A stretch of DNA of 64,000 nucleotides, taken from the NCBI GenBank assembly GCA_951406725.2, contig OX597816.1:24304001-24368000 (forward strand), written 5' to 3'. The notes beneath the pieces are model-generated. The model ran no database searches and had not been told where the DNA came from. It saw only the letters and a list, made by a program, of their open reading frames with translations. Shown here piece after piece: positions 13,236 to 39,507 of this stretch; positions within the stretch are counted from its first letter, which is position 1, and every line of letters starts with the position of its first letter. Both the position numbers and the translations under genes were made by a program. The DNA is from Octopus vulgaris (Eukaryota).

Positions 13236-13360
13236 CAGTGAAATTTCTTACGGCAGAATTTCTTATACAGTGAAAATTCTTACGGCAATTTTTCTTATAC
13301 AGTGAAATCTCTTGCGCAAATTTTCCTATTCAGTGAAATTTCTTACAACAAATTTTCCGG
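13236..13360. repeat. Four ~32-bp degenerate tandem units (CAGTGAAATTTCTTACGGCA..TTTTCTTATA), probably internal to a non-autonomous DNA element
   Basis: The CAGTGAAA anchor recurs at 13236, 13268, 13300 and 13332. Confidence 0.7.
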
Positions 13361-14413
13361 ATACGGATTCATAGTTTGCACTCAGAAAACGAAACCTGAT
13401 CAGAAAGTTAAGAACAGAGTAAACTCCACTAACCTCTCAGAGGTTAGGTGTTAATATTAGAGGTGATAAAGGTTTTTCGTATGCAAGCCGCAGGGCTCGC
13501 TCTGAACACTCTAATTTTTTCTGTCAACGCACCGGCTGCCTCAGATATTCGGCGAATATCACTCCCGGTAGAACCGTGCGAGCTGAGACAACCAGAAGTT
13601 GGCGGAGTAAATTTTAGTGTTATTTTGTAAATAACGCTGTATAACAGGATTTTTGTCCTTGAGTAGCAACTGTTATTTGCTGTTTACTTGTTCTTACAAA
13701 GTATGAAAAATCGTTAATATTTCCATGAAACTTCGCTTTTGTTACATTTATTCAAACCCCAAAGAATCCCTCTCAATACATTGCTATGATGCTCCCCCAC
13801 TACTCATGGACATCATCAGAGATACACATACTGTCAACCACTAAGGGACATGTTCAAGTAGTTAGGGTCAAGCAACTGGCAAGCAAATCTGTGACATTGA
13901 GCAGAATATTTGCTATAACGATGTTTCTGCTTCAACAACTCAGCGCTGAATCCGTCTGAAATGTAATGGAAAATAGGTCACTTTAAAAATATTCATGTAC
14001 AGGTCACAAAAACAAATTTTGAGGGGCAGAGTGGTTTGATTTCTAGATAGAAGCAAATAGTAAATAACACTTGCAGACCAAAGGACAAAAAATAAAATAA
14101 CAATTTTGTTACACAGTGTAATTAATAGCAACAGAAGCAGTATCGATACAAGAAGAATAATTTATATCTCCAGCTAAACATGGAGGTTGTGTTTGGGACA
14201 CACAATACTGCGTTATTTATCTTGAGAAAGTCTCTGATATGGACTTGTGGTGCATAAAATCACTTGTATATATATTGATGACAGACGAGAACCGTCTGCT
14301 ATGGCCGCCGGAAATGCTAAGTCACATGATTTCGCTCTGGTTTGAGCTCTTTCATTAACAGATATCCGGTCGCGTCATAACAGCCGAATCTCCCGTCAAC
14401 GATATATATAAGA

Positions 14414-14803
14414 CTAGCAGTATCACCTGGCGTTGCACGGGTTTGTTTCGACCCTTTAGAATTGGAATTTTTGAAAAGTAAAAATTTTGCATTATTGTAG
14501 CTTGTTATTCTCTTTAAGTGAACATTTTTCTGGTTGAAATACACCGAAAAATGGCGACACAGCAGTCAAAAAACCGTAAAAATAGGGATTTTCATAGAAA
14601 AAAAGCACCTTTTTTATGTAAATAATTTTTGGTGTTAACATGATCCGATTTGAATTTTATCTTCTACGGAATGAAGAGCAAGCCTTCTTCTATCATACTT
14701 TCAATTTTGGTTAATTTGTGCCGCAGGGTCTCGGAGGAGATAGTGTTAGTTGAAGGCTACCAAACCTGCCACACACAGACAACTTCAGCTTTATATATAT
14801 AGA
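14414..14803 (-). mobile_element. Non-autonomous Helitron
   Basis: The minus strand starts A|TCTATATATATAAA and ends with a GC-rich hairpin (CCCGTGCAACGCCAGG) and CTAG|T. It is inserted in an AT dinucleotide with no TSD. Confidence 0.8.
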
Positions 14804-15449
14804 TTAGCGTCTGTTCTGGAACTGATGTCGCAAATAACTAGTGAGCTTATTAAAAAAATAATTTATTGCAACAGAATCAATATGAATACTAAAACGTAAC
14901 CGTTATTTCCCTTGAGAGAACCTCTCCTATGGACTCATGGCGCAGAGGTAAATTTGGTCGTTATTTCTAACACCCATCGAGACACACTCGTTGGCTAAGG
15001 CTTTGATATCTGCTACAACCCGGTTATTTTTAATCTTCGAAATAAAACGACATAGACAAGGATTTATGATGTTAAAAAATCATGTTCACTGTTGACATAG
15101 CCAATTATTTTTTTTGCTATGCTTACACCAGACTCCATTCATATTTGGCTTTTCAATCGATATCCACATGCATCGCTCATTGCGGCAGAGTTATTTTCTT
15201 ATTCGAATCACAAACAATATACGAATAAAAGTATATACGAATGGGTGAACGAATAAAGGAATTCGCGAATGAATGAATGTTCTTTTTTTTATTGTGAACA
15301 TTTAAGCGAAAATGTTTTATATTTGCTGAAGAATAATATTTGTAGCATTTGATGATTTATTAATACAACCGGAAATTAAATATAAATTTAATTTAAAATG
15401 TTTGCACTTACTATTTACTTATTTATGTGTTTATTTCCTTATATGTTCC

Positions 15450-16200
<751 letters not shown>

Positions 16201-16543
16201 GTGTACGTCTGTATATGTTTGTTCTCGCATAGAATTGCAGTCACTAGGTGTTTGTGTACACAATTTCTTATCTCACCTGCGACGAAGTACATTATGTCTA
16301 TAATAAAGGATTTATAGATCACACTTCTGGCTTTCAGCTAATTATTATCAAATAAACGTGACAGGCTCTTCAAACTGTTAGAAATAACAACCAAATGTCA
16401 CTTTTGTCACATAACACTGCCTTTAAAGAGGAAGAGATACATCAAATTACGTACGTCCTCATACATATACGAAAACAAGGCATGAATGTGGATGTCTGGT
16501 CATTTGGTTGGTTAATCAGGGTTAAATGACAACTTCTCTACTT

Positions 16544-16827
16544 CAGTGCTTCTCAAACTATCTGATGTGTCGTACCGGCAAATCTTTTTTTGACAATGTG
16601 TCAGGGACTGGTAATATTTCTTAAATATTAATTTGTACCGGAAACGATATATATAATAATGAATATAATAAAAGTTGACAATTTTTGACATCCTATATTT
16701 ATTTTGTAAACAAATAATACAATGATACATAAGCATTTTATAAGCATTTTAGAATGTTTCTTTCTTTCTGGAAACTCGTCGCGTACGGCAGCTGATGGCT
16801 CGCGGACCACCACTTTGAGAAGCACTG
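16544..16827. mobile_element. hAT (Charlie-like) MITE
   Basis: Perfect 14-bp TIRs CAGTGCTTCTCAAA / TTTGAGAAGCACTG. The flanking 8-mers CTCTACTT / TTCTACAC are a degenerate TSD with a TCTA core. Confidence 0.8.
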
Positions 16828-16868
16828 TTCTACACTAATGAACATATATTATATATATTTTTTTTTTT

Positions 16869-16919
<51 letters not shown>

Positions 16920-17224
16920 TTTTTTTTTTAAAGAATATATATATATATATATATAAAAGAATATATATATATATTCTTTTATTTTTTATTCTTTTACTTG
17001 TTTCAGTCATTTGACTGTGGCCATGCTGGAGCACCACCTTAAAGGGTTTATTTTTAAGAGGGGACTTATTCTTTATAAGCCTAGTACTTCTATCGGACTT
17101 TTTTGCCGAACCGCTAAGTTACGGGGACGTAAAGACACCAACATAGGTTGTCAAGTGATGATGGGAGACAAACACACACACACATGCACACACACACTCA
17201 CACACGCGCACACACGCACGCACA

Positions 17225-17290
<66 letters not shown>

Positions 17291-17409
17291 CGACGGGCTT
17301 CTTTCAGTTTCCGTCTACCAAATCTACTCACAAGGCTTTAGGTTTATAGTAGAAGACACTTGCCCAAGGTGCCACGCAGTAGGATTGAACCCGGAACCAT
17401 ATATACATA

Positions 17410-17670
17410 GTCTAGCGGTGGTCTGCTCCTAGGTAGGTTCTGTGCATGTGAACCTTTTCTAGCACTCCTTATACGATCTGAGAGGACCCGTACCCCCTCC
17501 TGCCACCGTTAAGTAGATTACTGGAACCTCGGTTACCATAATTAGACTTGGGTGAATACCGGTTTGGGTTTCCGTTGCCTTCTCCAGGTAGATAGGATTT
17601 GAACTCAGAATTTTGAGAGCCAGAAGATATATCATCGTAAAGTATCTCTGACGACGTGGCAACGTGAAAT
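17410..17670 (-). mobile_element. Additional SINE-like family (second copy at ~47615-47870)
   Basis: Both sites share GTGAACCTT...TAGATTACTGGAACCTCGGTTACCATAA...GGATTTGA(A/G)CTCAGA; the last block is an antisense B-box. Confidence 0.65.
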
Positions 17671-18194
17671 AAAGTTCCCGCTCTGGGAATCGAACCTGCG
17701 CTTAACCACTAGGCCACGCGCCTTCACTACACACACACACATTATTTGTTTCAGTCATTAGACTTCGGCCATGCGGGAGCACTGCCACGAACAATTTTAG
17801 TCAAACGAATTGACCCCAGTTCTTATTTATTTTTTAACATGGCACTTATTCTATGGGGGTCTTTGGCCGAACTGCTAAGTTACGGGAACGTAAACACACC
17901 AGCCTCCAGGTGTCAAGCGGTGGGGGTTGGGATAAACACACATACACACACACACACATACACACATACTCACAAGCTTTCTGTTGGTTCGAGGCTACAG
18001 AAACTTGTCCAAGGTGTCACGCAGAGGGACCGAACCTAGCATCTTATAACTGGGAAGTAAGCAACTTAACCATACATCATGCTTGCGTCTATGTTCTAAT
18101 GAGAGGACACGGCGCATTCATCATAAATACTTTCGGTTGAAACCATGTTAACCAAATGACAAAGTAGCCAAAAGCCATATTCGTAGAAAGACAT

Positions 18195-18530
18195 GTTGTT
18201 GTTTGTTTCATCCTTTAGAAGGAACAGTTGTTTGTTCCTTCTCGAGGCACGCCTGGCTCATAGGGTCGGTTTCCCGGTTTCCTTGGCGCATAGGTTCCCC
18301 ACCTGGATGGGACGCCGGTCCGTCGCAGGTGAGCTGCAAGATGCAGGAGGAAGGAGTGAGAGAAAGTTGTTGCGAAAGAGTCAACAGAAGCTCGCCACTA
18401 TCTTCTGCCGGAGCCGCGTGGAGCTTAGGTGTTTCGCTCATAAACACACACATCGCCCGGTCTGAGATTCGAACCCGCGATCCCTCGACCGCGAGTTCTC
18501 TGCACTAACCACTAGGTCATGTGCCTCCAC
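18195..18530 (-). mobile_element. SINE family C full copy with 10-bp TSD
   Basis: AGAAAGACAT lies at 18185-18194 and 18531-18540. Confidence 0.88.
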
Positions 18531-18906
18531 AGAAAGACATATTAGTCGAAGAAAATTCCACAATATTCCATAATAGCAATTTTCAAATGAATACAATGAT
18601 GGAAACAGGACATTATTTTGACATTTTTTTCAGTGAATATTCAAAACAAAATTCGGCTTCCGCAGTCTAATCGATTTTATATGTTAATTTATATTTCTAA
18701 ACCAACCAGGTAGATTTTTTTTCGAATTGTCCAATTCTGACCTTTAAAAAACTTGGCCCGCCATCGTCTATTACTTTCTTTACATCATTTGTATATTTCT
18801 GACCAATCGATGGTCAGCTGTTTTGACGTTCTTTTTACAAAAGAATTCAGCTATACTTGGGAGACTGTTTTATGTAATAAATGTGGACGAGATTACTTCG
18901 TTTCCA

Positions 18907-19473
18907 TTAGGTTGTCCGGAAAGTTCGTGCCGATTTTTAAATGAAAGAAAAGGATCAATAAATACTTGCCATTGCATTTTTAATCAACCAAATATGAACC
19001 ATCTTATTGCACAATGCGTCTCCGTCTTTCCTTTAACTTGAAAATACCCTCTTCCCAGAATTGAGGTGGTTTCATGGCAAAGAATTCATCAAGGTATATT
19101 TTTATGCCATCCAAGGAATTGAAACTTTTACCATTAAGACTATTCTGCAGAGACCTGAATAAGTTGAAATCCGAAGAAGCAATATCTGGTGAATACGGAG
19201 GGTGGGGTAACACATCCACAGCCGAGCTGCAGCAATTTTTGTCTGGTTCCCAAAGCATTAAGTGCCGAAAATGAACTTTCTTATCTTCCATGTTAAAGGG
19301 TTACAGAATTAACACAGGTTATAGGAATATAAACCTTCTTCCACGAAAAGATAGCTTAAACTGTACTCTAAATGGAGGTGTAGTCAAATCCCATTTTATG
19401 GACTCAACCATGTTCTAAAATAAGTGGAAAGGTAAGCTACTATAAATCGGCACGAACTTTCCGGACAACCCAA
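18907..19473 (-). mobile_element. Internally deleted mariner (DD34D) element, 567 bp
   Basis: TIRs are TTAGGTTGTCCGGAAAGTTCGTGCCGATTT and AAATCGGCACGAACTTTCCGGACAACCCAA|TA. ORF 19004-19291 joins the transposase N-terminus MEDKKVHFRHLMLWE to the C-terminus HPPYSPDIASSDFNLF...GIFKLKERRRRIV. Confidence 0.92.
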
Positions 19474-19757
19474 TAGATTTGTGTTGTTGCGGTAGATACT
19501 TGTGGGTCGGACACTGTCTCATTATTTGCTAGCATTGTTCGTTTATTCTCTAAACTTCTTTTAGAGATGCATTTTCCGACATTATATTTATAATTGTGTG
19601 TGTATTCTTTTCGTTCTGGGCTCAAATTAGGCCGAGGTCGACTTTGACTTTCATCATTTCGAAGTCAATGAAATCAGTACCAGCTATACACTGTGGTCGA
19701 TGTAATAGACTATCCCCTCATATATTGCACACAGACACACATATTACACACCCACAC

Positions 19758-19795
<38 letters not shown>

Positions 19796-20022
19796 ACACA
19801 CGCACGCACGCACACACATTAGTTATGCAAGTGTCTTCAATTATAGCTTCGAGCCGACCAAAGTTTTGTGGGTAGATTTGGTAGACGGAAACTGAAAGAA
19901 GCTCATCTCAAGTGTGTGTATGTATGCGTGCGTCATTGTGTCTGTATTTATTCCCACCACCATACATACACACACACATACATACATACATACATACATA
20001 CATACATACATACATACATACA

Positions 20023-20058
<36 letters not shown>

Positions 20059-20185
20059 TATAATGAAGAGAAATAACCTTTATTAACATATATTATATGT
20101 TGTGAAATTTGATTTGGAATTACTAAATTGAATTTTTCCCTGTAAGTTTGGAATTATATTCCCTACTATTATATATATGTGTGTG

Positions 20186-20268
<83 letters not shown>

Positions 20269-20360
20269 GTGTGTGTGTGTTTGTGTGCATATATATGCAC
20301 ACACACACACATGCATCTATATGCATATACTGTATATGTATTTCTCTCTCACTGTATACA

Positions 20361-20406
<46 letters not shown>

Positions 20407-21077
20407 CATATACATAAATGCATTGATACAGTCATGCATACTTACATACCCACGCACACATATTTTTTCATGTGCAAATGAGAGAAAAACTAATGCATGT
20501 ACAGTATATATATATAGCAATAATTTGAGCCGACGAAATGTATATATATATATATATGTGTGTGTATGTCTGTGCGTGTGTATGTGTATGCACATATATG
20601 TAAACACATGCATGTATATCTATACATATATTCGTATGCACACACCCACATGTCTGTATGTGTATGTGTGCGTGTGTTTTATATGTATGCATTTACGTAT
20701 GCACATCAATATACTGCATAGTGTATATGCACTTATGTAAGCACGTATGTATGTATGTTCGTCTATCTGTCTGTCCGTATATACGTACATATATAGCTTT
20801 TGAAGTGATGTGATAAAGTCACTGTTTTACGTAATGCCCTGAATTTTTTTTTTTGTGTTCTTTGTTTATTATTTTCCAAGTTAAGTTCAATAATCGATAA
20901 AGCATTACAATACTTCATTTACTAGCACAAACATCCATTTTCAAATTGGAATGTTTCAGCTAAACATTTCATCTCTAAAGACAAATATATTTACTAGTCT
21001 GTCGCCATTATTTTCTCTTGATAACAAAGATACAGAGACAGTTAGGATGGGAGAAAAATAGATAGATAGATAGATAT

Positions 21078-21126
<49 letters not shown>

Positions 21127-21273
21127 ATAATTAGAGAGGCCGGGAGAAAGATGGAGAGAATAAGCTTCTGCGGAAGGAAGATAGGTAGGGCTATAGTACA
21201 AAGTAGAGATAGTAATGTGTGCTAGAGAGAATTAGAAAAAAAGAGGAGAAAAAGGAAAGAGTGTGTATGAGCA

Positions 21274-21325
<52 letters not shown>

Positions 21326-21488
21326 AGGGAGGAGTGAGAGACTAGAAGTGGAGGAAATGCAAGGAGGAAGTGGAGGATGGGGTTGTAACATTCAGAAGAT
21401 AGATAAAACAGAAAGAAAGGGTTATGGCCGTAAGAGAGCTGCAGGACTAAAGAGAACGTTATATACATTATTATTATTATTATTATTA

Positions 21489-21537
<49 letters not shown>

Positions 21538-21559
21538 AATTATTTTTATATGAAAACCC

Positions 21560-21850
21560 ACATCTTATTTTGCTGGGTATGCTGGAAAGTGCCATCTGTC
21601 CACAACCAGCAGACTAAGGTGACATTTGTTTACTGGTCATGCTTCAAGAACCCTGCGAACAATTCTTGCAGTTCCAAGCAATGCCAATTTTTGCATGGGT
21701 TCTATCTTCACACTTGCAACAACCTTTTTCAGCCATGTTAGTAATTGAGTGCTAACACTTCCAAGTGCACCAATTATTACTGGTATCACGTCTACTCTCT
21801 TCATTGAAAACAACCTTCTTATTTCCCACTTCAAATTGTCATAGTTGTTT
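21560..21850 (-). mobile_element. 3' end of R4/Dong-like non-LTR retrotransposon (RLE domain C-terminus)
   Basis: Reads NYDNLKWEIRRLFSMKRVDVIPVIIGALGSVS...MQKLALLGTARIVRRVLEA*, followed by a short UTR and a (TAA)n tail at 21468-21537. Confidence 0.75.
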
Positions 21851-21881
21851 ATTTAAATTTTTTTTAAATTTTATTGTTATT

Positions 21882-22414
21882 GAGTGAGAGAGTCGTGCAT
21901 GCCATCAAAGTGATACAGGGGTAAAATATACGAAGCCCAGTATACCCATCATGACTACCCGTCTGATAAGGGTACACTAGGCACATGCATCACAACCATG
22001 TGTGCGCGACATAGTGATTTCATATCAGGATAAACAGCGCATGACCTTGCAGGTGGGGCCCAGTTAGAATTTTCTTCAGGTCGAGTAGCCCATCCCTCTC
22101 CAATGGTCCTTGAATAAGGCTTGTTTAAGGATGGATGTTGAACGAAACACCCATGTTTCCAGAGGTGAATTATTCAAACTCCAAAGAATTCCTTTTAACA
22201 CATGGTGATGATGCTCCCCACCCCACTATGCTCGTGGTCAGAGATGCACATATTGTCAGCCACTAAGGGACATGCTCAAGTGGTTAAGGCCAAATAACTG
22301 ACAGGCAAATCTGTTGCTATAGCCCGTCTTTTCTACCCAGATAAAACAAAGTACATGATAACACTTCCAATCAGTTAAGATGAGAAGCCATGAAAGTCAC
22401 TGCCTGGTACTGCA
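21882..22414 (-). mobile_element. ~550-bp non-coding interspersed element bounded by (AAT)n
   Basis: Same sequence as 33231-33755, 55007-55560, 56315-56804, 63470-64000 and partial 13750-13918. Confidence 0.85.
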
Positions 22415-22417
22415 AAC

Positions 22418-22530
<113 letters not shown>

Positions 22531-22532
22531 TA

Positions 22533-22580
<48 letters not shown>

Positions 22581-22588
22581 CATCATCA

Positions 22589-22643
<55 letters not shown>

Positions 22644-24898
22644 AAAACAGTTTGATTCGGCTCTATGCATCTTAAAGCTACGTAGGTTTCTTGTAGAAAC
22701 CTGGTTCGGCCAGGCTACATATATATATAGGAAGAAAGAGAGAGAGAGAGAGGGGGGGGCAAAAAGAATGAGTGAAAGATAGCTATGTTCCATTCCTTGC
22801 TAGCAAACAGGAGTAATATGAGAATTAGAAATGGAGAGAAATAGTCGGAGAAAAAGAGGTGGGCGGTTAACACTAGCATACAAGATATGTATGTAAAGAG
22901 AGATGGAAACAAGTAGTGCGTGTGAGAGAGAGAGGAAGGATAGAATGACAGTAAATAGGGCTGAGAGAGAGAGCGCGGATGAATGAGTGATACATACAGA
23001 CATGTTACTCTCGGAAATAAGAGAGAAAGAAACAGAGAACTACACACGAAGAGAAAAATGTGAGATTTTAAGAATATAAGAGACAGAAAAATGAATTAAC
23101 GAACGGTGGGTAGACGTGAAGAGAAGTCTGTAGGTGTCTGTGTCTGTATCAGTGGCTGTGTTTATGATAAATACAGTATTTCTGTTGGTGTTGTATACCT
23201 TAATATTTTGAACGGATAGCGATCAATGACAGACGTATCAGGCTGCAAGTATCGACTGGTGTTGATATGATAGATTAAAACTCTTGAAAGCAAAGCGGCG
23301 CACCAGAATGGCTGCAGTCCAATGACTGAAACCAGTAAAGGTGTTAAAATAGTATAGAGTAGAAGTGATTATATTCGTGGCGCAGGACAACGAGGGCTAA
23401 TAATAGTAAAAATAAAAGGAGACAAAATAAGAGAACGTTAGAGTAAGACTGAAACACACACACACACGCACATTATTTCTTTGAATTATTGGACTGCGGC
23501 CATACTGCAGTACTGCCTTGAAGGGTTTTAGTCGAACAAAAGACCTCAGTACAATTCTTTTACACGTTAATTTCACGAGCAGGCTGTTCTGTTGATCGAA
23601 TCAACTGAAACACTCGTCGTCGTAAGCGACAGAGAGCCAAGCCTTTGTGATCACGGTAAGTCCATAGTCGAAGATTTATATAGAAGGGCAGGTCACGGGT
23701 AGATCATAGGCAGGGGTACTTATATGCTATTGTTTGGGCTCATTCTCGCTGGTATGTTAGCACAGGCGAAGATTTATATAGGAGGTCAGGTCACGAGTAG
23801 GTCATAGGCAGGTCACATTCAGTAGTTGTGTTGAAAGCGTTGCTGGATCTAGTCATATTGCTTTTGCTTGGTAGGTTACTCCAAGGAAAATAACATCACT
23901 AGGTGAGACAAGCTGGCACTGAATTAGCCTCGTTGATTGACAGGCGGCGGTATCGTTTAGAGAATGCGTGGGCTAAGACTACGCGCCTTCATTGGCCAGT
24001 TAAAGTTGAGACAATGTCACGCGACAACTTGCTGGGGGCTGCCTGCTGTAGCCTAGCGGCAGGTATTTAAAGGGAAATTTGACAAGACAGTCAGTCACCC
24101 GCTAACACTCGTTAACGCTACATCGAAGAGGCCTGGGAACAGAAGAAAGAAGAAGAAAGAAGACATGCACCCAACACCAGAGCTGAAGACACCTCCGAAA
24201 GGGAGGGCCCCGCCACGTCAAAACGTTAGAGGAGTAGGGGCCGAAACCGGACGTGGTTCCTCCTGATGGTGTCTTGAGCTAACTGGATCCTATAAAGGAG
24301 TTGTTGTGGTAACAGACCACGAAACACGATTGAAATTCCTATATTATGTTCGCTACTTATGCTATAGTTAGGATCCACTCTCAAGTATGCAAATACATTT
24401 GCGATAGGTTACAATTGTCTCGGAGCACGGATCAAAGATATATTAAAATTCAGTGATTTATATGAAACGATCGCATCTTAAACATATTCTCAACAAAGGA
24501 AGTGGTTTGTTTTAAAGTACTCGCTTTGCAGATAAAGAGGATTATTATTTAATGCCATTGTAAATTTCAGTGTAATTACATATTCTTCATCAGTAACATG
24601 ATACAAATAAGTGCTTGTGTAGCTACAGACTTTATACGCATCTGAGTTCGCAAGCATAGATCTCGCCATATGCATACACATACACACATACATTTCAACT
24701 TCATTTACGAGCATTATCATTTATAGTGATATACATACGTGCACGCACATACACAATATATATATGCATATATAACAAATTTAGGAATGGCCTTAACAGG
24801 CCATTCGTCCACCAGAGAGAGCAGCCAGAACTCAAACCGCCAAGTAGTAGTAATTCAGAAATTAGGTGAAAATTTAAAAACGTTTACCCTAATTCATC

Positions 24899-24995
24899 TT
24901 TTAGACGATGCATCGTTTCTGTGTTTTTAATGATAAACCAGCTTAATTAAATTAAATTAAGCTAATCTACCATAGGTCACACTTCATCAGTAAAA
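24899..24995 (-). ncRNA. Type I hammerhead ribozyme motif (canonical core) in a short Penelope-like repeat (~24770-25165)
   Basis: Minus strand: stem I UUUUA, core CUGAUGA, stem II (GUGU..ACAC plus a 19-bp extension with four G-U pairs), GAAA, palindromic stem III ACGAUGCAUCGU, C17, then UAAAA. Confidence 0.75.
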
Positions 24996-25496
24996 AACCT
25001 GGGAGAGACAAATATACACGAAGCGTCTGTATCAATGCCTCCGGAATATCTCTCTTAAAATTTTCAAGACCAACGTAGTCTTTGACTATTTTCTCTTTTC
25101 CACTAGACCGCTGGTAGCGATAAATTTCTATTGAATTTTTTGCTACCCTAAGTTGATTAATTTATATGCATATATATATATACATATCTATATATATATA
25201 TCTATAAATATATATATATAAGTTTGGAAATGTTGACTACCTTGTGTTATGTTTCGATGGCGCTTGGTCGAAGATGCAAAGGGTAGATTTCTAGCATTTT
25301 CAAATTTATAATTCTCGAAATATTATGTCGATGAAGGAAATGAATTTTTTATAATTCTAATCCAGAAACGCGTCCATAATAAATCGTAGACTGTTTGATT
25401 TCATTATGTTTTCTTCTTTTGCCTATGTGAGTTACAAATATTGTTGTTTCTAAATTTTCGGTATGTAGTTAAGCAACTTTTTGCTAAACCTTTAAT

Positions 25497-26019
<523 letters not shown>

Positions 26020-26074
26020 TCCGGGAACGCTGCCGTTGTTCTCTTTTAGAGAGACTTAGTAATTTTAATATTTC

Positions 26075-26139
<65 letters not shown>

Positions 26140-26901
26140 TATGTATGTGTGTATACACAAATCCGTGCACACACGTATATATGCATACATATACACACGT
26201 TTATATTCACACATACGTACACACGATACGCATCGGTACGGATATGAATAAATATATTCAAAGATAAACACCTAAGGGTATGTACCTAGATAGACATACA
26301 CATGCATACATACACTTACAGGTATGCTTATACGTATGTACTTACATGTAAGTATACACGCACATTATACAAATATTTATACGTTTATGTAAATATAGAT
26401 ATTTACATAAGCCTATGTAAATATCTATATAAACGCCTCAATGTTTGTATTAATTTTATAGATATACACAGATATACATTTACATATATATGCAGAAACG
26501 AGTGGCTGTGTGGTAAGTAACTTGCTTACCAACCACATGATTCTAGGTTCAGTCCCACTGCGTGGAACCTTGGGCAAGTGTTTTCTACTATAGCCTCGGG
26601 CCGACCAAAGCCTTGTGAGTGGATCTGGTAGACGAAAACTGAAAGAAGCCCGTCGTACATATGTATATATATATGTGTATGTGTGTGTGTGTGTGTATGT
26701 TTGTGTGTCTGTGTTTGTCCCCCCAACATTGCTTGACAACTGATGCTGGGGTGTTTACGTCCCCGTAACTTAGCGATTTGACCGATAGAATAAGTACTAG
26801 GCTTACAAAGAATAAGTCCTGGGGTCGATTTGCTCAACTAAAGGTAGTGCTCCAGCATGGCCACAGTCAAACACACAAACACATACATACACACACATAC
26901 A

Positions 26902-26969
<68 letters not shown>

Positions 26970-27044
26970 CATACATATATGCATTCATATATATATACAT
27001 ATATATCCAAATGTATACATATATACATACATATATACATATAA

Positions 27045-27128
<84 letters not shown>

Positions 27129-27193
27129 TTGTATGTATGTATGTAAGTATGCATGCATGTATGTATGTATGTATGTATGTATGTATAGATAGT

Positions 27194-27242
<49 letters not shown>

Positions 27243-27303
27243 GGATGGATGGATGGATGGATGGATGGATGGATGGATGGATGGATGGATGGATGGATGG
27301 ATG

Positions 27304-27374
<71 letters not shown>

Positions 27375-27691
27375 GGATAGATAGATGAATGGATAGTTGC
27401 GAAGTTTGAAAAACCGAAGTCATTTTACAGTTTGTATAAGCAAGGCTTCGATGTAACTGTCGAACTTTTCGATGTGAAAATAAAATATGCTGCTACACAG
27501 AAAGGTATTGAGAGTTATAACGTTTGGCTGTTCTTATATATATATAACTAAGCTTTAAAATAAATATTGATATATGGACACGTGTCCTTGAGTGTGTATG
27601 CGGGTGTGGTCGTGCATGTATGTGTGTCTGTGCGTATGGGTGTGTGTATGTAAGTATGTATCTACACACGTATTCATACACCCCCACACAG

Positions 27692-27770
<79 letters not shown>

Positions 27771-28273
27771 TGTTTGTATATATTTATATTCACATATATA
27801 CAAATGCATATATATATATATATAATATATATATATATATATTTAAATGTATGTATATATAGATATACACACATATATTTATAAATATATATATCTATAC
27901 GTACATGTATGTATATAAATATATATATATATAAATATAATATATATAAATGTAATATATATAAATGTAATATATATAAATATATATACATATATAAGTA
28001 GATATAATATATAGAAATACATATATATATATATATATATATACATATATACATATATATATACATACATACATACATACATACATACATACATACATAC
28101 ATACATACATACATACACACAAACACATACATTCAGACGCACACATATGGAGTGTGAATTAGTTAGAGAAAAGGTGGAGATAGATACATCAAAAGAAAAA
28201 TGAAATATCAGAATTTAGGAAAATCAATGGTATTCATCACCATACATCTATGTGTGCATGCGCATATGTGGTG

Positions 28274-28317
<44 letters not shown>

Positions 28318-28488
28318 TATATATATACACATACACGTCTCTACAAATATTGGTATTTAGTTGATGGTATTGATGGTGTATTTATGCAGTTCTGTAAAGT
28401 ATCAATTCGCGTGCGCTTGAACTCGTTTATTCACAGATAGACACATTGACGATACTTACAACACACACAAATGCCCTCCCGACACACA

Positions 28489-28528
<40 letters not shown>

Positions 28529-28926
28529 GTCTCTGTCTCTGTCTCTCTTTCTCACCGCTACCCACACACATACACTATAGACAGAACCATCCGCATGTAC
28601 ACACATAAAATATCATTAAAATCTTTCTCATACAACTTAGAAGACAGACAAATAATAGGTTAGGTATGTAAAATAAATATTCTGCATAAGAGATTTTATA
28701 CACGAGACTTACCAAACGTAGAACCGTTATTATTATACCTTCCTCATTACCTTTATTGTAATTATAACATATGCAACGAGACTAAATGGTTGTTGTTGGT
28801 GGTGGTGTTGTTGTATAGCCTCAATCAACCCTCTTTGACCATACTTATTATCAAAGATATCTCGTCATATTATTTTCCCAGACATATCTAATACTGCATT
28901 ATCCAAAGTGTCCTTCCCACTACCAT

Positions 28927-28992
<66 letters not shown>

Positions 28993-29073
28993 ATTTATAT
29001 ATATATATTCATATCTATCATTCGCCATGATAGATCGCTAGCCACTACACATTCTTTATTTTCTCTCCTTGTT

Positions 29074-29111
29074 TCTTTCTGTGGAAGAGCGTAGGCTCGA
29101 AACGTTGAAGA
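29074..29111 (+). ncRNA. Minimal hammerhead-like motif (CUGUNGAA core variant), copy 1 of a ~200-bp repeat
   Basis: Reads UCUUU CUGUGGAA GAGC-GUAG-GCUC GAAA CG UU GAAGA. Confidence 0.5.
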
Positions 29112-31721
29112 CTTTTTCACTTCTCGAGCGTTAAAGTAAAACGTTTGTTTGTTGTCTACACCATCTGTCTTCGTCTTTGTTTTTTGCGAATTGTTTCCAA
29201 ATTTGGCATATGGATTAAGTTTTGTATACTAATTCTTAAAATGAAATTCATTTTCTTATAAATTCATAACTAAAAAGTTATTAGCTCTTGACCCTTTACT
29301 CTTTTACCTGTTTCAGTCATTTGACTGTGGTCATGCTGGTGCACCGCCTTTAGTCGAGCACATCGACCCCAGGACTTATTCTTTCGAAGCCTAGTACTTA
29401 TTCTATCGGTCTCTTTTGCCGAACCGCTAAGTTACGGGGACGTAAACACACAAGCATCGGTTGTCAAGCGATGCTGAGGGGATAAACACACAAACACACA
29501 CACACAAACACACACGCACACACATATATATACATATATACGACGGCCTTCTTTCCGTTTCCGTCTACCAAATACACTCACAAGGCTTTGGTCGGCCCGA
29601 GGCTATAGGAGAAGACACTTGCCTAAAGTGCCACAGAGTGGAACTGAACCCAGAACCATGTGGTTTGTAAGCAAGCTACTTACCACACAGCCACTCCTGC
29701 GCCTTTTTGTAATTTGTTGATTACAATCAATTTGGAGGTTACACACCTTGTGCGCATGCGCAACATCTTTGGTTGCTATGACAAAAAAGTAAAAGAGTAA
29801 AAGAGTAAATCTTAATCCATATCCCAATTGTATACTAATTATGAAAATGAAATTCATTTTCTTATAAATTCATAATTAAAAAGTTATTAGCCCTTAACGT
29901 TTGCAAAATTTGGGTATTTTAGCCAATCAGACCACCGTTAAGGTCTGTTAGCATATTAAGCAAAGAAGTACCACGTGTTCCATAGCTGATTGCGAAGAAC
30001 TCTGTTGCTATAGTAACCAAAGATGGTTGCGCATGGGCACAAGGTATGTAACCACCAAATTGATAGCAATCAACAAATTGAGTGTACCTGGGCATCTTTA
30101 AAGCGTGGAAACAAATGACGACGTGGGACACACCATACATGGTTGACTCCTTTCTTTGTGAATTTTTGTGGAGAAGGGGATACGAGAAAGATAATTCATT
30201 TTGTAAAATCCTAGACTGCATTGCAGACTTTCGTTCTTAAGTTTTTTTAAACTAAGAAACGTCTGTTTTAAGCAATAAATGTCTGTTTAAGACTTGTATT
30301 TCTAGCAACTCTTGTTGGTTTGCTCGTAGCTTTTAAATATTTAATTTGCTCGCGAAACTCTTTTAATGTTTTTCACTGTTTACTATAGCTAGTTTAATGT
30401 TTTGACACGTCAGTGTTCCCCACTACGTCTTTCTCGCTTCTGTGACAGATGATGGAAGAAGCAGCGAACACGCTGTTTTCTGATTGGCTGAAAATTCTGA
30501 AAATTATCAAACTTTGAACACCTGAAATATTTTCGGCAATTTTTTCTGGAATAAATGAATAACGAATTCGGATTCAGTGTCAAAAATTACATCTATATGA
30601 TACATTAAAACAATTTTTTAACGATAATTGTAAAGTGACAAATTCAGGCTTTGGTCGACCTGAGGCTATAGTAGAAGACACTTGCCCAAGGTGCCATGCA
30701 GTGGGACTTGAACCCGGAACCATGTGGTTCGTAAGCAAGCTACTTACCACACAGCCACACTCCTACGCCTATGAAGTTAGATGAAAACTTGCTGTCGTCG
30801 TGAATAATAACGTCTTACTCCGCTAAGAAGAGAGTATGATGTATTACGAATGACCTCTTATATCGGTTTGTCATGCGATGATATTATTATGATGAATATC
30901 AAGGAAGAGACGTGAGTATTTATTTGTTAAGAGAACAGATGCTAAGAACAGTGGACAGCGACATATCGCCATCGTTGTGAATTATTTATTAGTTTAACTA
31001 CTTGGAACGTATTGTGACAAAAACAAACAGCCAATGCAACAAGACAAAAAGGAAGCGTCTACGTGGTTGCTCGGTTTGCTAGAAATAGCAACCAAATCAC
31101 CCTCAATTTACACATCACTGTTTTTAGTAAATAACACATTGGATAATTTGGTCTTAGGTTCGTTACACACACAAAAAAGACGTAATTGTCATATGTTTCT
31201 TTTTTCTTCTTGCTGGTCTGGAGTAAGGGCCACTCTCTTTAGCCTTCGCAGGTTCTCCTACATTGGTGAGATTTTGATGGCAGTAATTTTCCTCTTGAGC
31301 TTTTGAAGGTCTACACCTGCTGGAAAGATATGAACAGGAAAAGGAATTCCAGAATGAATGATGTTCTGTGAAGGAAGGACTGGGGGTCAGTGATTACTGT
31401 AGGACAGTGGTTCTCAACCGCCTTTAGTCGAGCAAATCGATCCCAGGACATATTCTTTGTGAGCCTAGTACTTATTCTATCGGTCCATTTTGCCGAACCA
31501 CTTGATTACAGGGACGTAAACACACCAGCATCGGTTGTCAAGCGGTGTTAGGGGGACAAACACAGACACACAAACATATACACACATACATATATATATA
31601 TATATATCCCCCATCCTCTCCTCTTCCCCCTCTCCTCCCCTCTTCTTCCCCTCCCCTTCTCCCCCCTCTTCTCCCCCTCCTCCTCTTGACTTTACACATC
31701 ACATCATATATGATGTGCCAT

Positions 31722-31954
31722 ACTAATACATACACCAACTAATACATACTAATACGTACTAATACATACTAATACATACTAATACATACACCAACCCTAT
31801 ACATACACACGTCCAGACCCCTCATACGCACTTATACTCTCTCATACACACACACACACACTTATACATACTAATACGTACTAATACATACTAATACATA
31901 CACCAACCCCATACATACGCACGTCCAGACCAATCCTACGCACTAATACTCTCT

Positions 31955-31993
<39 letters not shown>

Positions 31994-32058
31994 ATACATA
32001 CTAATACATACACCAACCCTATACATACACACGTCCAGACCCCTCCTACGCACTAATA
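31722..32058. repeat. Compound minisatellite (~115-135-bp units containing CTAATACATACACCAACCC...CACGTCCAGACC) inside a family A SINE
   Basis: The unit anchor CACGTCCAGACC occurs at ~31808, 31920 and 32030. Confidence 0.75.
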
Positions 32059-32227
32059 GCTGGTCCTTCAACCCTATTATCAACCCTATTATCTCCCCTT
32101 ATTTCGCTCTCGCGTCTCATGTTTGATCTTTGACCTCTGGCAGAAATCAGATCGCCATGTTGATTCGTTAGTTACTGCACGCATTTTTTCTCTCCTTCTT
32201 TCTGTGTTTTTTTTTTCTCTCTGTGTA

Positions 32228-32265
32228 TCTTTCTGTTGAAGAGCGTAGGCTCGAAACGTTAAAGA
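32228..32265 (+). ncRNA. Minimal hammerhead-like motif, copy 2
   Basis: Reads UCUUU CUGUUGAA GAGC-GUAG-GCUC GAAA CG UU AAAGA. Confidence 0.5.
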
Positions 32266-32362
32266 CTTGTTTTATTTATATTTCCTGAGCGCCATACTAA
32301 TACAATTGTTCGTTTGTTTTCCACCTGCCTTCGTCTTTTGTCTATTTTCATAAAGCTTCCCG

Positions 32363-32402
<40 letters not shown>

Positions 32403-33098
32403 GACAGGCTTCTTTCAGTTTCCGTCTACCAAATTCACCCACAAGGCTTTGGTCAGCCCGAGGCTATAGTAGAAGACACTTGGCCAAGGTGCCACGCAGT
32501 GGTACTGAACCCAGAACCATGCGGTTCATAAGCAAGCTACATACCACACAGCCACTCCTGCACTTATACAGTCAGGAGATAATCAGCCACAGCCTAATAT
32601 AAAATATAAGATATTGTGCTCTACAAAGAATATAAAGTACTTATTAAAATGCATAGCAGTCAGGGGTTAAGCAACAACAGCCTAGTGCAAAACATTCACA
32701 AAATATGAGACAGTAGAGTGCTATACGGACAATATAAAATACTAATTCAAATATATAAGAGCGAGGTAGACGTGCGGAAAACAAGAGAGTACAATGTGTT
32801 TATTAATTGCATCAGATATATTATCTTTTGTTTTGCTATGAAATAATATGCTATTTCTGTTGCGACGTACAGTGAACATACTAAACATTGTCTGGGATAA
32901 ATTATCGAATTCCTATCCTCTATTGTTGTTATTCTTCGTTACGCTGGTTTCTTGTTAGCCTAATTACCAGACGTGCATGACCCGATTGTTTGTTCATACA
33001 CACACACACACACACAATAGATAGATAGACAGACACTTGGGCACACACGTAAACTCATATATAGATATTGTGTACTTCGTAACTGCTGGCGATTAAAC

Positions 33099-33220
<122 letters not shown>

Positions 33221-33230
33221 TATATTAAAT

Positions 33231-33755
33231 GCCCTGGTGCAGTACCAGGCAGTGGCTCTCATGGCTTCTGATCTTAACTGATTGGAAGTGTTATCATGTA
33301 CATTGTTTTGTCTTGATATAAAAGATGGGCTACAGCAAATATTCTGCTCAATACCACAGATTTGCTTGTCAGTTGCTTGACCTTAACCAGTTGAGCATGT
33401 CCCTTAGTGGCCTACGATATGTGCATCTCTGATCACGAGCAGAAGTAATGGGGGAGCATCATGGCCATGTGTTGAGAGGGATTCTTTGGGGTTTGAATAG
33501 TTCACGTTCAACATCCTTAAATATTCAGGGACCTTTTGAGCAGGATGGGTTACTCGACAAGAAGAAAATTCTAACTGGGCCCCACTGCAAGGTCATGTGC
33601 TGTTTATCTTGATATGAGATTACCATGTCGCGCACATATGGTTGTGATTCATGTGCCTGGTGTACCCTTATCAGACGGGTAGTCATGATGGGTATACTGG
33701 GCTTCGTCTATTTTATCCCAGTGTCACTTTGATGGCATGCACTGCTCTCTCACTC
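33231..33755 (+). mobile_element. ~550-bp (AAT)n-associated element
   Basis: Starts GCCCTGGTGCAGTACC directly after an (AAT)n run and ends CTCTCTCACTC-AATAAT. Confidence 0.85.
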
Positions 33756-33884
33756 AATAATGATAATATTATATGTATATATATATATATACAGACACTT
33801 AGATACTGAGACTTGTTTATCCTAGATAGATCAATTAATAGATAGATAGATAGATACACACACACATCATACATACACATATAT

Positions 33885-35400
33885 ACGAGGGTGTGTAATT
33901 TATTAAAACAAAAGCAGGGATTGATCAATTACATCATTGTTCGACATAGTCTCCTTCCTTTTCGATACACTTCCATCGATCTACAAACCTGCTTACTCCA
34001 TCGGAGAAGAAGGTTTCCTGTCGGTCGCGCAGCCATTTGTGCACCGCTTCCTGTGCCTCTTCGCCTGCAGCAAATCGATGGCCTCATAAAGAATATATGA
34101 GAGGTCCAAAAGGGTGAAAGTATGAAGGAGCGAGTTCAAGACTGAATGCAAGGTGTTACAGCAACATGAAATCCAGTTTTTTAATGATCTCAACGGTGTG
34201 GGCGACTGTAAGTGGACATGTATTAACGTGCAACAACACTTGATTTGACGACAGGCCGCTGCATTTGGTGCGAATTGCAGGTTTCAGTCTGTTGGCCAGC
34301 ATTTCATTGTAACTTACACTGGTGACTGTTGACTCCTTTTCTAGATCATGTTCGCCGGGCGAAATGCGTAGCCGTATTTCGTCTGCCGCTACGTTCTGAG
34401 TTCAAATTCCGCCGAGGTCGACTTTGCCTTTCATTCTTTCGGGATCGATTAAATAAGTACCAGTTACGCACTGGGGTCGATGAAATCGACTTAATCCGTT
34501 TGTCTGTCCTTGTTTGTCCTCTCTGTGTTCGGCCCCTTGTGGGTAGTAAAGTAATAGGTATTTCGTATGCCGTTACGTTCTGAGTTCAAATTCCGCCGAG
34601 GTCGACTTTGCCTTTCATCGTTTCGGGGTCGATTAAATAAGTAGCAGTTACGCACTGGGGTCGATATAATCGACTTAATTCGTTTGTCTGTCCTTGTTTG
34701 TCCCTTCTGTGTTTAGCCCCTTGTGGGTAGTAAAGAAATAGCATCACTTTTTTTTTCTGTGGATGGTTGAGTTTTGAATATCTTTTTCGCTAGCGATTCC
34801 GGGTGTTTTCACTCTATACACGGCCTTTTGGATTTTAATTCAAAGTGATGGACACAGGTCTCATATCCTGTGACTATTCTCTCCAAAAATGCTTCGTCTT
34901 TATCATTGTAGTGGACAAGTAAGCGTTGACAGATCGCCACACGATTACGCTTAAGTGCTTCGATAAGCTTCCTTGGTACCCATCTCACACAGAGTTGCCG
35001 TGGATGATTTCGTATGTAGAACCATGAATAATTTGCAGAAGACATGTCATTTAATCGATTGTCACTTGACGGTTCGCCAGAACCATCTCCCGAGCTTGTT
35101 GAATCTTCACCTCAGTGGTGGAGGTTGATGGGCGTCCTGCGCCCATCTCGTGTTTCACCTTTGTCGGCCCATTTTTAAACTCGAACCACTCATACTTCTA
35201 CACGGTAGAGCTCTATACCCATATTGTATGGAAAGTCTGCAATAAAATTTAGCCCTGACACACCTTCAGAGCCAGAGAAAACGGGTCGCTAATCTCGGTT
35301 CTTCCTTGGTGCACACTGCCAGCTGATCGACCATATTTACTCTGTAACAAAAAAAAAAGAAATTTGAGCGATCAAGGTCCAGCCTCGGTTACATAACCAC
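33885..35400 (-). mobile_element. Degenerate mariner transposon, interrupted by a family B SINE dimer
   Basis: One end reads TACGAGGG. Minus-strand motifs are GAGRPSTS, LCVRWVPRKL, FLERIVTGYET, LHVN.CP, FSLELAPSYFHPFGPL and RWKCIEKEGDYVEQ*. Confidence 0.8.
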
Positions 35401-35496
35401 AAAAATACCACTTTTTAGCACGCGGGCGCTGAAGGCAGGGCAGTCAACCTAAAAGAAGTTTTTTCCAACATATAACGGGTATAAGCCTGTGCGTAA

Positions 35497-35570
<74 letters not shown>

Positions 35571-35771
35571 GTCTGTCTCTCTGTATGTCTGTCTGTCTGT
35601 CTATCCATTTGTCTATCTATCTATCTATCTATCTATTTATTTATCTATCTATTCTCTATCTAGTTAGCTATCTGCAAACACACATACGTACATAATACAT
35701 ACATACATACATACATACATACATACATACCTATACAGAGATAATAGACAGAGGCAGACAGACAGACAGAC

Positions 35772-35834
<63 letters not shown>

Positions 35835-35856
35835 CAGACAGATACATAGATAGAAT

Positions 35857-35942
<86 letters not shown>

Positions 35943-35953
35943 CAGATAGATAC

Positions 35954-36010
<57 letters not shown>

Positions 36011-36091
36011 GCGTGATATCTGAGTTTGTAAGATAGTGACTGTATAAACAACTAGATACACGAACACACACGTAGATACACAGGCACGTGT

Positions 36092-36142
<51 letters not shown>

Positions 36143-38038
36143 TAGTGAGAGAGAGAGAGAGAGAGAGAAGTGATGACTGGAAGTATGTAACAAATGCAGA
36201 GCGACTGTGATATATATTTTTCAATACAAAATTCGACGTAATCAAAAGACAATCTCAATTAATGGACTTAAAACAACACAACTACGAAAAAAATAAAAAA
36301 AAAAAGGAAAAAAGAAAAGAAAGATAACATTATTTCTTCTATCGCAGCCAACAGTAAATTCAATAAGTAGCAATAACAAATAATTTTCAGAGTCTTATCG
36401 ATCTAGCTTTCCCCCAATTACATCGACGTTTAATCGACACTGATCAATTAATCTACACAAATATTTTATTTGGCTTAATGCTTTGAAAATCTTCAATATC
36501 CGGAGAGAAAGACAAATTGCAAATACTACTCTTCTGGAAATCAAATGAATTCTTCGTAATTATTTAAATCTTGATTTCGGTTACTTCTACACCAATGCTA
36601 TGTAATTTTCGCATTATCGATCTGTTTGATTTTTTTCTTCTTTTTTTTTTTTTTTTTTTGAAATCTGCAAATTCTTTACGTTCGATTATAGATTTAAGAA
36701 TAAAGAAGTAAAGAAATAAATTGGTAACATATGCAGACTTGAATAGAATTATTTCGGCTATTCACTATTGATGTTGTTTTGGCTTTGCATTTCATCATTG
36801 CATTTAATGGACATTTCTTTGTATTTTTAGTAAATTAAAGGTTTCCGTCACTGTGCTATATTGTACGGTCAGTTATTGGAGCATAATGAAACCTGATAGT
36901 CTTAGATGATTCGCAGTGAAAAATATGAATTGAATAAGAAAGAAAAATGGTTAGCATTAACGAAAATATAAATTTCGCGCTTCGGATAAAGGATTTCAGA
37001 ATTCTATAGAGATGAGAAAGTAGATTGATGGTTATCTTTATTTTATTATTATTATTATTATTATTATTTTTGTATGATTCGTTTGTCTCTCAAACCATTA
37101 ATCGATAGAAAAGAAAATAATGGATTTGAACGAAAATCGAAACTATAGTCATGGGCTTCGCTTGTGATGAGCTCATCTTCATTGAACACTTTTGAGCATC
37201 TTTTCGGGGTCGATTTAAAAAACAAAAAAGTATCAGTACAGGTAGGTAGATTGGCGGAATTGTTAGAGTATCGGATAGGATAGGATACTTTCTGTTATCC
37301 GTCCCGGCCCTGTGCTTTCTGAGTTCAAATCGCGTCTCGTCACCGGAAAATGGTGACACTTCTGTTAGGCGTTGCGACCTTTGTTGGGGGTTATTTAGTT
37401 GTTTGTTCCTTCTTGGGCCATGCCTGGCTCATAAAGGCCGGTTTCCCATCTGGTCCGTCGCAGGTGAGCTGCATATGCAGAAGGAAAGCGTGAGAGAAGG
37501 TTGTGGCGAATGAGTCAGCAGAAGTTCGCCATTACCTTCTGCCGGAGCCGCGTGGAGCTTAGGTGTTTCGCTCATAAACACACACATCGCCCAGTCTGAT
37601 ATTCGAACACACGATCCCTCGACCGCGAGTCCGCTGCACTAACTACTAGGTCATGTGCCTCCACGATTATTTAGTTACTTATGTCTTACTATGTTATCTC
37701 AGATTTTGCTGAGATTGACTTAGTCTTTCTTCCTTCGCGATCGATAAAATAACAGTATCAATCAAATACTGGTTACATTTAAGCGACTGTATCTGCAAAT
37801 GTCTTCCAACACGACATTTACAGTCTTGTACATATGTTAGAAATTATTATTGTTATAAATCAAATTCTCCGAATCCTACACAAGCTGTTTGGATCACTGA
37901 CTAAGCCAAATGGATTGTTATAATTCTGCTGCTTGACATGCACGAAAATATCAAATATACTAAGCAGCTGTACCTAACAATCTAGTAATAATAGGTTGTT
38001 TAGTAGCGTCATATTGCATCATATATTACGCTGGTGAA

Positions 38039-38270
38039 GGCGGCGAGCTGGCAGAATCGTTAGCACGCCGGGTGAAATGCGTAGCCGTATTTCGTCTGCC
38101 GTTGCGTTCTGAGTTCAAATTCCGCCGAGGTCGACTTTGCCTTTCATCTTTTCGGGGTCGATAAATGAAGTACTAGTTACGCACTGGGGTCGATATAATC
38201 GACTTAATCCGTTTGTCTGTCCTTGTTTGTCCCCTCTATGTTTAGCCCCTTGTAGGCAGTAAATAAATAT
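38039..38270 (+). mobile_element. SINE family B copy with 18-bp TSD
   Basis: ATATATTACGCTGGTGAA lies at 38021-38038 and 38271-38288. Confidence 0.9.
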
Positions 38271-38294
38271 ATATATTACGCTGGTGAATTGTAT

Positions 38295-38855: not shown

Positions 38856-39400
38856 GAAAGTATTGGAGTGCAGTCGTTACCCCTTTAGTTGACCCTCGAT
38901 TCAAGAGCGAGAAAAGTGGAGAGGATCTGTGTCCAGCCAACAGCATGGGGACTCAAAACATGAGCGAAGATATGGCTTATGCTACTGCTAAACCGTATTT
39001 CATTGCCAATTATATGCAGTTTATCTAAAACTTTTGTCTTTAGTGAAGCACATAGTTTTCAAAGTAGCTCCTATTTAAAAATCAAGGTTACGATATCATT
39101 TTCCTTCACAATATGTTCCTTCGCTGCTTCCATAAATGACTCTTAATATATGTGATAACTATAAGGCTTGCAAATACCTACTGAATCATTTTAAAGTCCA
39201 CGATCTATAAAGAGCACAAGCTAAAAGGTTTCAGTAATCTGTTCGTTGGTCAGGCGGAGTTTTGTATGTCAAGTACACGTCTTTTTGAATGCATCCTCTC
39301 TTCATTTCATTTAGCTGAGTATGACTTGAAGGAGATGTGTGTGTACACATACGTACATACATACATACATATACATTTATATGAATATATACACACACAA

Positions 39401-39487
<87 letters not shown>

Positions 39488-39507
39488 TATTCACACATAT
39501 ACACATA

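Follow-up and report, generated by a model that had tools for sequence, protein, structure and literature searches.

Non-LTR retrozymes of animals are low-GC, noncoding tandem repeats that occur as monomers to multimers and carry a type I hammerhead ribozyme in each unit. They show target duplications of more than 4 bp, and autonomous Penelope-like elements reside in the same genomes (PMC7229834; bioRxiv 10.64898/2026.07.22.740005). In the available text of these two papers, mobilization of retrozymes by Penelope-like elements is argued from co-occurrence and from pLTR homology. Penelope-like elements themselves are described with two internal 3' ends downstream of a hammerhead, head-to-head inverted arms, a tail at one end only, and AT-rich or (TA)n targets (PMC11167929; PMC8557442; PMC3846280). 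The presence of the tail on one inverted arm has already been reported qualitatively (PMC8557442, PMC3846280).

Here we describe an Octopus vulgaris repeat family that resembles both groups in each of these respects. The family and its sister, with units of 473 and 492 nt, constitute a non-LTR retrozyme in which stem II is extended, the largest subfamily has A·A at the base of that stem, and the Penelope-type tail is long. The favored reading, to which we assign a probability of roughly 0.78 on the basis of sequence comparisons, is that this retrozyme would be moved by a Penelope-type reverse transcriptase (RT)-endonuclease that primes once at each of two sites on a probably circular ribozyme-strand RNA. 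No such family was found in the literature on octopus retrozymes that the search covered; most subscription papers lay outside it, and the supplements of PMC7229834 and bioRxiv 10.64898/2026.07.22.740005 may list cephalopod families.

A type I hammerhead in a truncated insertion

The window analyzed here is a 64,000-nt stretch of O. vulgaris contig OX597816.1 (positions 24,304,001 to 24,368,000). A first-pass annotation had proposed that it contains a canonical antisense hammerhead with a long stem II extension. The predicted elements were confirmed on the minus strand, namely, the CUGAUGA and GAAA core motifs, the 12-nt palindrome ACGAUGCAUCGU as helix III, a GUC site with a predicted cut between 24904 and 24903, and a 19-bp hairpin with 15 Watson-Crick and four G-U pairs. 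Together they form a three-helix junction around a CUGANGA / GAAA / UH core with an open stem I, as in type I hammerheads (Table 1). The core is intact, but "canonical" is too strong a word. Positions 10.1-11.1, which are normally paired in hammerheads and typically G-C (PMC4209133), are an unpaired A·A in the window copy and in 43 of the 76 variants typed; G-C, A-U, or G-U occupies them in relatives. The "extra unpaired A residues" noted earlier at the base of stem II are, more precisely, this single mismatch followed by a 4-bp stem; the internal loop beyond it lies 5 positions from the core. The motif is antisense relative to the host gene, as had been stated, but it lies on the sense strand of the element itself.

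Table 1. Features of the hammerhead, the insertion, and the predicted host intron (window positions)
Feature	Position	Strand	Description
Type I hammerhead	24896..24998	minus	Stem I 24998-24991 / 24903-24896; core 24990-24984 (CUGAUGA) + 24919-24917 (GAAA, 24919-24916); stem III 24916-24905; C17 at 24904
Stem II	24920..24983	minus	A·A at 10.1-11.1 (24983/24920), 4 bp (24982-24979 / 24924-24921), 5x5 internal loop, extension
Stem II extension hairpin	24930..24973	minus	19 bp (24973-24955 / 24948-24930), four G-U pairs, 6-nt loop
Left target-site duplication	24761..24774		14 bp, in TA-rich tract
Right target-site duplication	25163..25176		14 bp
Arm A	24775..25080	minus	~0.65 of 473-nt unit; spans cleavage site; 3' end at site A
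Site A module	24775..24806	minus	8-bp hairpin 24806-24785, then CCUAAAUU(U)G motif, arm end; putative priming site
Arm B	25076..25162	plus	Inverted, 87 nt, head-to-head with arm A, 5-nt overlap at junction; 3' end at site B
Site B module	25113..25162	plus	Hairpin 25113-25147, then motif (one mismatch in window copy), arm end; putative priming site
Predicted host intron	12088..53901	plus	Between collagen-repeat exon (ends 12087) and C1q exon (53902-54110); GT/AG, matching phase

Canonical type I hammerheads from satellites of newt, schistosome, and Dolichopoda, as well as axolotl HHR_Amex2, share the core, the GUC site, and a palindromic helix III with the octopus motif. In contrast to these, octopus helix III consists of 4 bp plus a tetraloop, and stem II carries the long extension. 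HHR_Amex2 also resembles the octopus motif in that its stem II begins with a mismatch, U·U, and its monomer is described as cleaving weakly (PMC7229834). Relative to the metazoan non-LTR retrozymes as the cited texts present them, the octopus motif differs in this A·A and in a loop 2 that is an internal loop capped by the 19-bp stem (PMC7229834; bioRxiv 10.64898/2026.07.22.740005). Since helix III is longer than 1 to 2 bp, folding as a monomer is possible. In a short context, the ribozyme fold of the window motif lay 1.6 to 2.0 kcal/mol above the minimum, similar to eight other folded variants (1.6 to 3.9 kcal/mol); with 40 more nt on each side, the value rose to 6.7 kcal/mol. We place the chance that the window motif would cleave as a naked monomer slightly below even. 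An Rfam scan of 23500-26100 returned 13 matches at E values up to 10, the hammerhead model not among them, and the best 150 of 274 matches for the whole window included only microsatellite-driven microRNA models. Taken alone, the ribozyme adds one more member to a known class.

The motif lies inside a 388-bp truncated two-armed insertion (24775-25162) that is flanked by a 14-bp target duplication. The element, its target duplication, and its two-armed anatomy go beyond the first-pass annotation. No open reading frame (ORF) of 100 amino acids (aa) covers the window copy. Because this copy has one ribozyme, it releases no monomer and is a dead-end product.

The ribozyme likely lies antisense within a predicted 41.8-kb intron of a collagen/C1q gene. 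The gene assignment is based on Pfam matches to PF01391 (collagen repeat; E value of 1.8e-05, under its cut-off) and PF00386 (C1q). Three plus-strand exons of this predicted secreted collagen/C1q-domain gene were seen at 11796-12087, 53902-54110, and ~57390-57595. An intact core placed antisense in this putative intron is what would be expected if the window locus itself were a selected functional antisense ribozyme, for example, one that cuts an antisense transcript of the C1q gene. However, the copy is truncated, it is 98 to 99% identical to dispersed copies over the motif, and its features are family-wide. Selection at the locus is therefore unneeded, and we consider this explanation very improbable.

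Other hammerhead-like motifs were observed in the window. One, at 24177-24260 on the plus strand (CUGAAGA ... GAAA), is part of a repeat that spans 23885-24344. It has the same orientation as the host gene and an apparent extra hairpin between A9 and stem II. The single further copy seen (L025, 2159-2296) is 94% identical over 140 nt. Another, on the minus strand at 24545-24600 (CUGAUGA ... GAAA), has weak helices and no second copy among the fetched loci; it is probably decayed or a chance occurrence. At ~25500-26140, a long inverted repeat (81% self-match) with the minimal-hammerhead-like word GAAACGCGUC is likely another two-armed Penelope-type relic.

The repeat family and selection on its ribozyme strand

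The insertion belongs to a noncoding tandem repeat with a 473-nt unit, of which 160 nt are G or C, and 195 exact motif matches. The genome searched comprised 2.8 Gb in 227 contigs. Three exact patterns gave 149, 38, and 8 matches, and their controls gave 0; the 149 matches of a 21-mer, against 0 for its reversed control, demonstrate that the motif is not due to chance. Of three subfamilies with the same stem III, the one with A·A is the largest (149 versus 38 exact matches). Six loci (L061, L069, L080, L108, L113, and L119) form a subfamily in which U4C (CCGAUGA) occurs together with G10.1-C11.1. For analysis of the copies, 128 loci were fetched out of all matches, merged to 89 sites, and mapped on a natural unit. 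Searching with a motif close to end B gave 3,920 matches (control, 11); this motif is common to this family and to a sister family with a 492-nt unit, ~73% identical, which was the source of most of the first 100 matches to that motif. Arrays reach 6.9 turns in the window family and 9.35 turns in the sister family. Both units exceed the 150 to 450 bp given for metazoan non-LTR retrozymes in the text of the cited papers, a range that is descriptive and not mechanistic. The 473-nt repeat is young. It has the defining features of retrozymes: dispersed tandem repeats whose every unit holds a type I hammerhead, no coding capacity, low GC content, and a target duplication of more than 4 bp.

Family sequence is also carried by contigs from runs of two organism codes, none of which is on record as RNA. 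Four contig sets cover the element; they show joints where units meet in the genome, and their ends do not pile up. Contigs do not reveal strand, ends, or level and thus do not bear on expression.

The first-pass annotation had argued that mismatches that are G-U on the minus strand point to selection on minus-strand RNA structure. Four G-U pairs out of four in one copy are expected about 1 time in 16 if all changes are transitions. The asymmetry of a single copy is weak alone; the family makes it strong. In a typed set of 67 of the 79 variants (12 were dropped for loop changes or indels), the pair types common to at least 2 variants were 21 Watson-Crick, 10 G-U, 1 A-C, and 6 other, the single A-C type being fixed in 17 variants. 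All 79 variants fold better on the ribozyme strand.

Covariation was scored in 36 chosen variants of the 79 distinct ones; stem I, which an alignment gap kept out of this scoring, was typed separately. Under these conditions, 94.6% of cells were paired and 34 cells held double changes, and none of 500 shuffles came as high on either measure, both of which are inflated by relatedness. The counts of pairs and of pair types were not above those of the shuffles (442 and 497 of 500). At the stem II base, both partners vary in each of the three scored pairs, and the extension contains nine pairs with one-sided changes and two with two-sided changes. In stem I, U-A to C-G swaps were found at two positions. 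The helices thus covary among genomic copies.

Hammerheads tolerate any base at N7 but no G at H17. Both properties were seen in a core survey of 23 sister loci that had been chosen by the end-B motif and not by the ribozyme: N7 took all four bases (T8/A3/C5/G3), and H17 was A or C (A13/C7), never G. No variant at the 11 core positions was common to two sites, and the comparison with the rest of the unit (0/11 versus 87/481; p 0.23) is not significant by itself. The core is kept among family copies. The proposal of selection on the RNA structure is therefore upheld by covariation and core conservation, with N7 varying freely and G excluded at H17; that selection acted on the retrotransposing RNA lineage before insertion and not on this locus.

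The G-U bias could also be left over from A-to-I editing of an originally perfect hairpin rather than reflect selection for structure. In relatives, U-A does alternate with two of the four G-U pairs, and one locus, L022, described below, suggests that edited RNA can enter DNA. The other two, however, have G-C as their alternative, and both U-G pairs are also seen as C-G. Site-private changes are balanced between A>G and T>C (15 versus 17; p 0.60), as are shared A/G and C/T differences (21 versus 20), and double-sided changes exist. As a general cause of the G-U pairs, editing thus appears largely refuted already by these comparisons, and we regard it as improbable.

Insertion ends and Penelope-like elements

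The 3' ends of the arms fell into two phase windows in 123 of 139 cases (68 A, 55 B). Phase A lies ~130 nt after the cut and phase B lies ~227 nt after it, giving a tail of ~98 nt. The 5' (inner) ends were spread over all 10 bins, with 4 of 139 within 5 nt of the cleavage site. Among the 46 two-armed sites, 39 were A+B, 1 was B+B, none was A+A, and 6 were unclassifiable, so that A+B accounts for 39 of the 40 classifiable sites (p 7e-11 against even odds). A second set of 19 two-armed sites, mostly of the sister family, included 18 that were A+B; these were read by hand with three already-counted sites left out, and their selection by the B motif disfavors short A+A copies. Combined, 57 of 58 classifiable two-armed insertions obey a one-site-per-arm rule. 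Three apparently one-armed sites (L075, L108, and L115) hide a short arm of the other type. In the literature covered by the search, with most subscription papers outside it, we found no count of the tail rule, no retrozyme case, and no explanation by a repeated module.

Both ends come after a hairpin and a CCUAAAUUG-like motif, and the two motifs are 95 nt apart. Each end hairpin has one double-sided change, and 97.1% of cells are paired (20 of 83 variants). The target is (TA)n: within 30 nt of the motif, (TA)4 is reached by 120 of 121 ends. A telomere-repeat reading of the CCCUAA in site B was dropped in view of these targets. The partner arm is the strict nearest relative at only 9 of 25 window-family sites (with 5 ties) and at 11 of 13 sister sites.

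These ends carry the Penelope-type signature of two internal 3' ends, a tail at one end, head-to-head inverted arms, and a microsatellite target. Against the descriptions of Penelope-like elements in PMC11167929, PMC8557442, and PMC3846280, the octopus unit differs in having no ORF, in two sites that look like repeats of one hairpin-plus-motif module, and in a ~98-nt tail where 30 to 40 bp has been published; the longer tail counts against the Penelope-type reading. A DNA-level satellite or inverted-repeat (MITE-like) element that moves with no RNA step would account for the tandem and inverted arrangement. It is at odds with outer ends that differ between arms by a fixed distance while inner ends are random, and with the strand-specific pairing of all 79 variants and the catalytic-core pattern; we consider it extremely improbable.

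Autonomous RT/GIY-YIG elements in the same genome likewise carry a tail, of about 40 nt, on one arm and none on the other. This pattern was seen at 4 of 4 two-armed loci of a family with a 776-aa ORF and at the one two-armed locus of a family with a 781-aa ORF. A third, decayed family ends at two points ~50 nt apart. The two autonomous families (L189 to L202) are young and have many intact ORFs. The 776-aa family has an upstream 487-aa ORF (L190) and a 1.4-kb microsatellite-like 3' region, and a hammerhead scan of it found none; in the 781-aa family, a hammerhead-like motif starting UUGAUAA was present in 5 of 5 loci shown.

No sequence in common with the unit was found in the active 776-aa and 781-aa families or at another 20 GIY-YIG loci. 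Likewise, apart from one nested fragment, nothing of the unit was found at 95 loci around GIY-YIG/RT matches or in 30 relatives of one of these loci, a result that counts against the favored reading. The nested fragment, in L131, matches site A at 78%, lies next to a GIY-YIG fragment, and was considered as a partner. It was rejected as a nested insertion, being identical to the sister retrozyme at 57 of 57 nt and having no counterpart in 28 fetched relatives from other loci. The units contain no RT plus GIY-YIG ORF. The case made in the available text of the retrozyme papers (PMC7229834; bioRxiv 10.64898/2026.07.22.740005) differs from that of the octopus unit, for which no pLTR homology to autonomous elements was found in the sampled loci (the searches score the best 150 candidates) and which shows the Penelope signature in its insertion ends.

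Template and proposed mechanism

The cleavage site is crossed by 123 of 139 arms, and 61 arms are longer than one turn. Arms that cross the cut site imply that the template is a circle or an uncleaved multimer, and of these we lean toward the circle. At one of 67 sites (L022; G000:C13:28009496-28012627), five A>G changes are located at unit positions 138, 144, 155, 172, and 212, all after U. They occur in every covering copy: in two turns of one arm, with three of the five also in the other arm. Each of these G residues is found in at most 2 of 56 to 67 sites, and the chance of such a cluster is ~7e-6 per site before a context term (A>G makes up 9% of private changes). The simplest reading of this pattern is that one ADAR-edited ribozyme-strand circle may have been copied by both arms. 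No second A>G cluster was found in 33 sister-reference sites. In the papers that the literature search listed, nothing pertinent to the copying of edited RNA into genomes was found.

Some arrays mix two or three unit types and are not always strictly periodic (L030, L046, L283, L284, L286, and L291). A single monomer circle therefore does not explain all arrays, and the mixed ones fit multimeric templates or later duplications. In L284, L291, L030, and L046, unit variants recur with a period of 2 or 3, as multimeric circles or block duplications would produce.

It is thus conceivable, though we think it unlikely, that the template is an uncleaved linear multimer from tandem loci, with the same Penelope-type priming, a hammerhead that is dispensable or needs protein, and arrays that grow later by unequal crossing-over. 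Such a template would agree with the mixed arrays, with the abundance of the A·A subfamily, and with the report that ribozyme mutants left insertion of the anole Poseidon element in vitro unaffected (PMC11167929). It does not predict a conserved core in which N7 varies freely and H17 excludes G, and the same rare A>G pattern in successive turns of L022 would be unexpected unless the source array was already homogeneous. The alternatives for the template and for the G-U bias are partly compatible with the favored reading, so that our confidences do not sum to one.

Under the favored reading of a retrozyme moved by a Penelope-type enzyme, tandem loci would be transcribed, the hammerhead would cut out monomers, and a host ligase would close them into circles. 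Monomer release and circularization by ligase are established for other animal retrozymes (PMC7229834). Counting against this reading, eight of nine Xenopus retrozyme dimers are reported not to cleave in vitro (bioRxiv 10.64898/2026.07.22.740005). A dimeric enzyme would then nick both DNA strands at (TA)n, each nick would prime just after its own hairpin-plus-CCUAAAUUG module, and copying would run round the unit. The anole protein is predicted to be dimeric and nicks both strands (PMC11167929). Whether a dimer primes in a dedicated manner, one site per nick, is in our estimate an even call. The one-site-per-arm rule is nearly strict in octopus, whereas the in vitro work, as described, saw no difference between strands (PMC11167929). 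PMC3846280, in the text available, leaned to self-priming on an antisense template, whereas the octopus L022 changes and G-U bias are on the ribozyme strand.

A broader proposal, to which we give slightly less than even odds, is that dedicated twin priming makes both the tails and the head-to-head arms of Penelope-like elements. A dimer would bind two repeated hairpin-plus-CCUAAAUUG modules ~95 nt apart in one circular RNA of the ribozyme strand, use each to prime at one DNA nick, and continue around the circle; the circles could be subject to A-to-I editing, with edits written into the germ line.

The main value of these data lies in the insertion anatomy. It bears on which enzyme moves animal retrozymes and on the origin of Penelope tails and inverted arms, both of which are stated as open in the available literature. 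The 57-of-58 rule, the two look-alike RNA modules, and one apparently edited template point to a small ORF-free substrate that yields direct predictions for an existing in vitro system. If twin priming is true, the 473-nt unit would be a minimal natural substrate.
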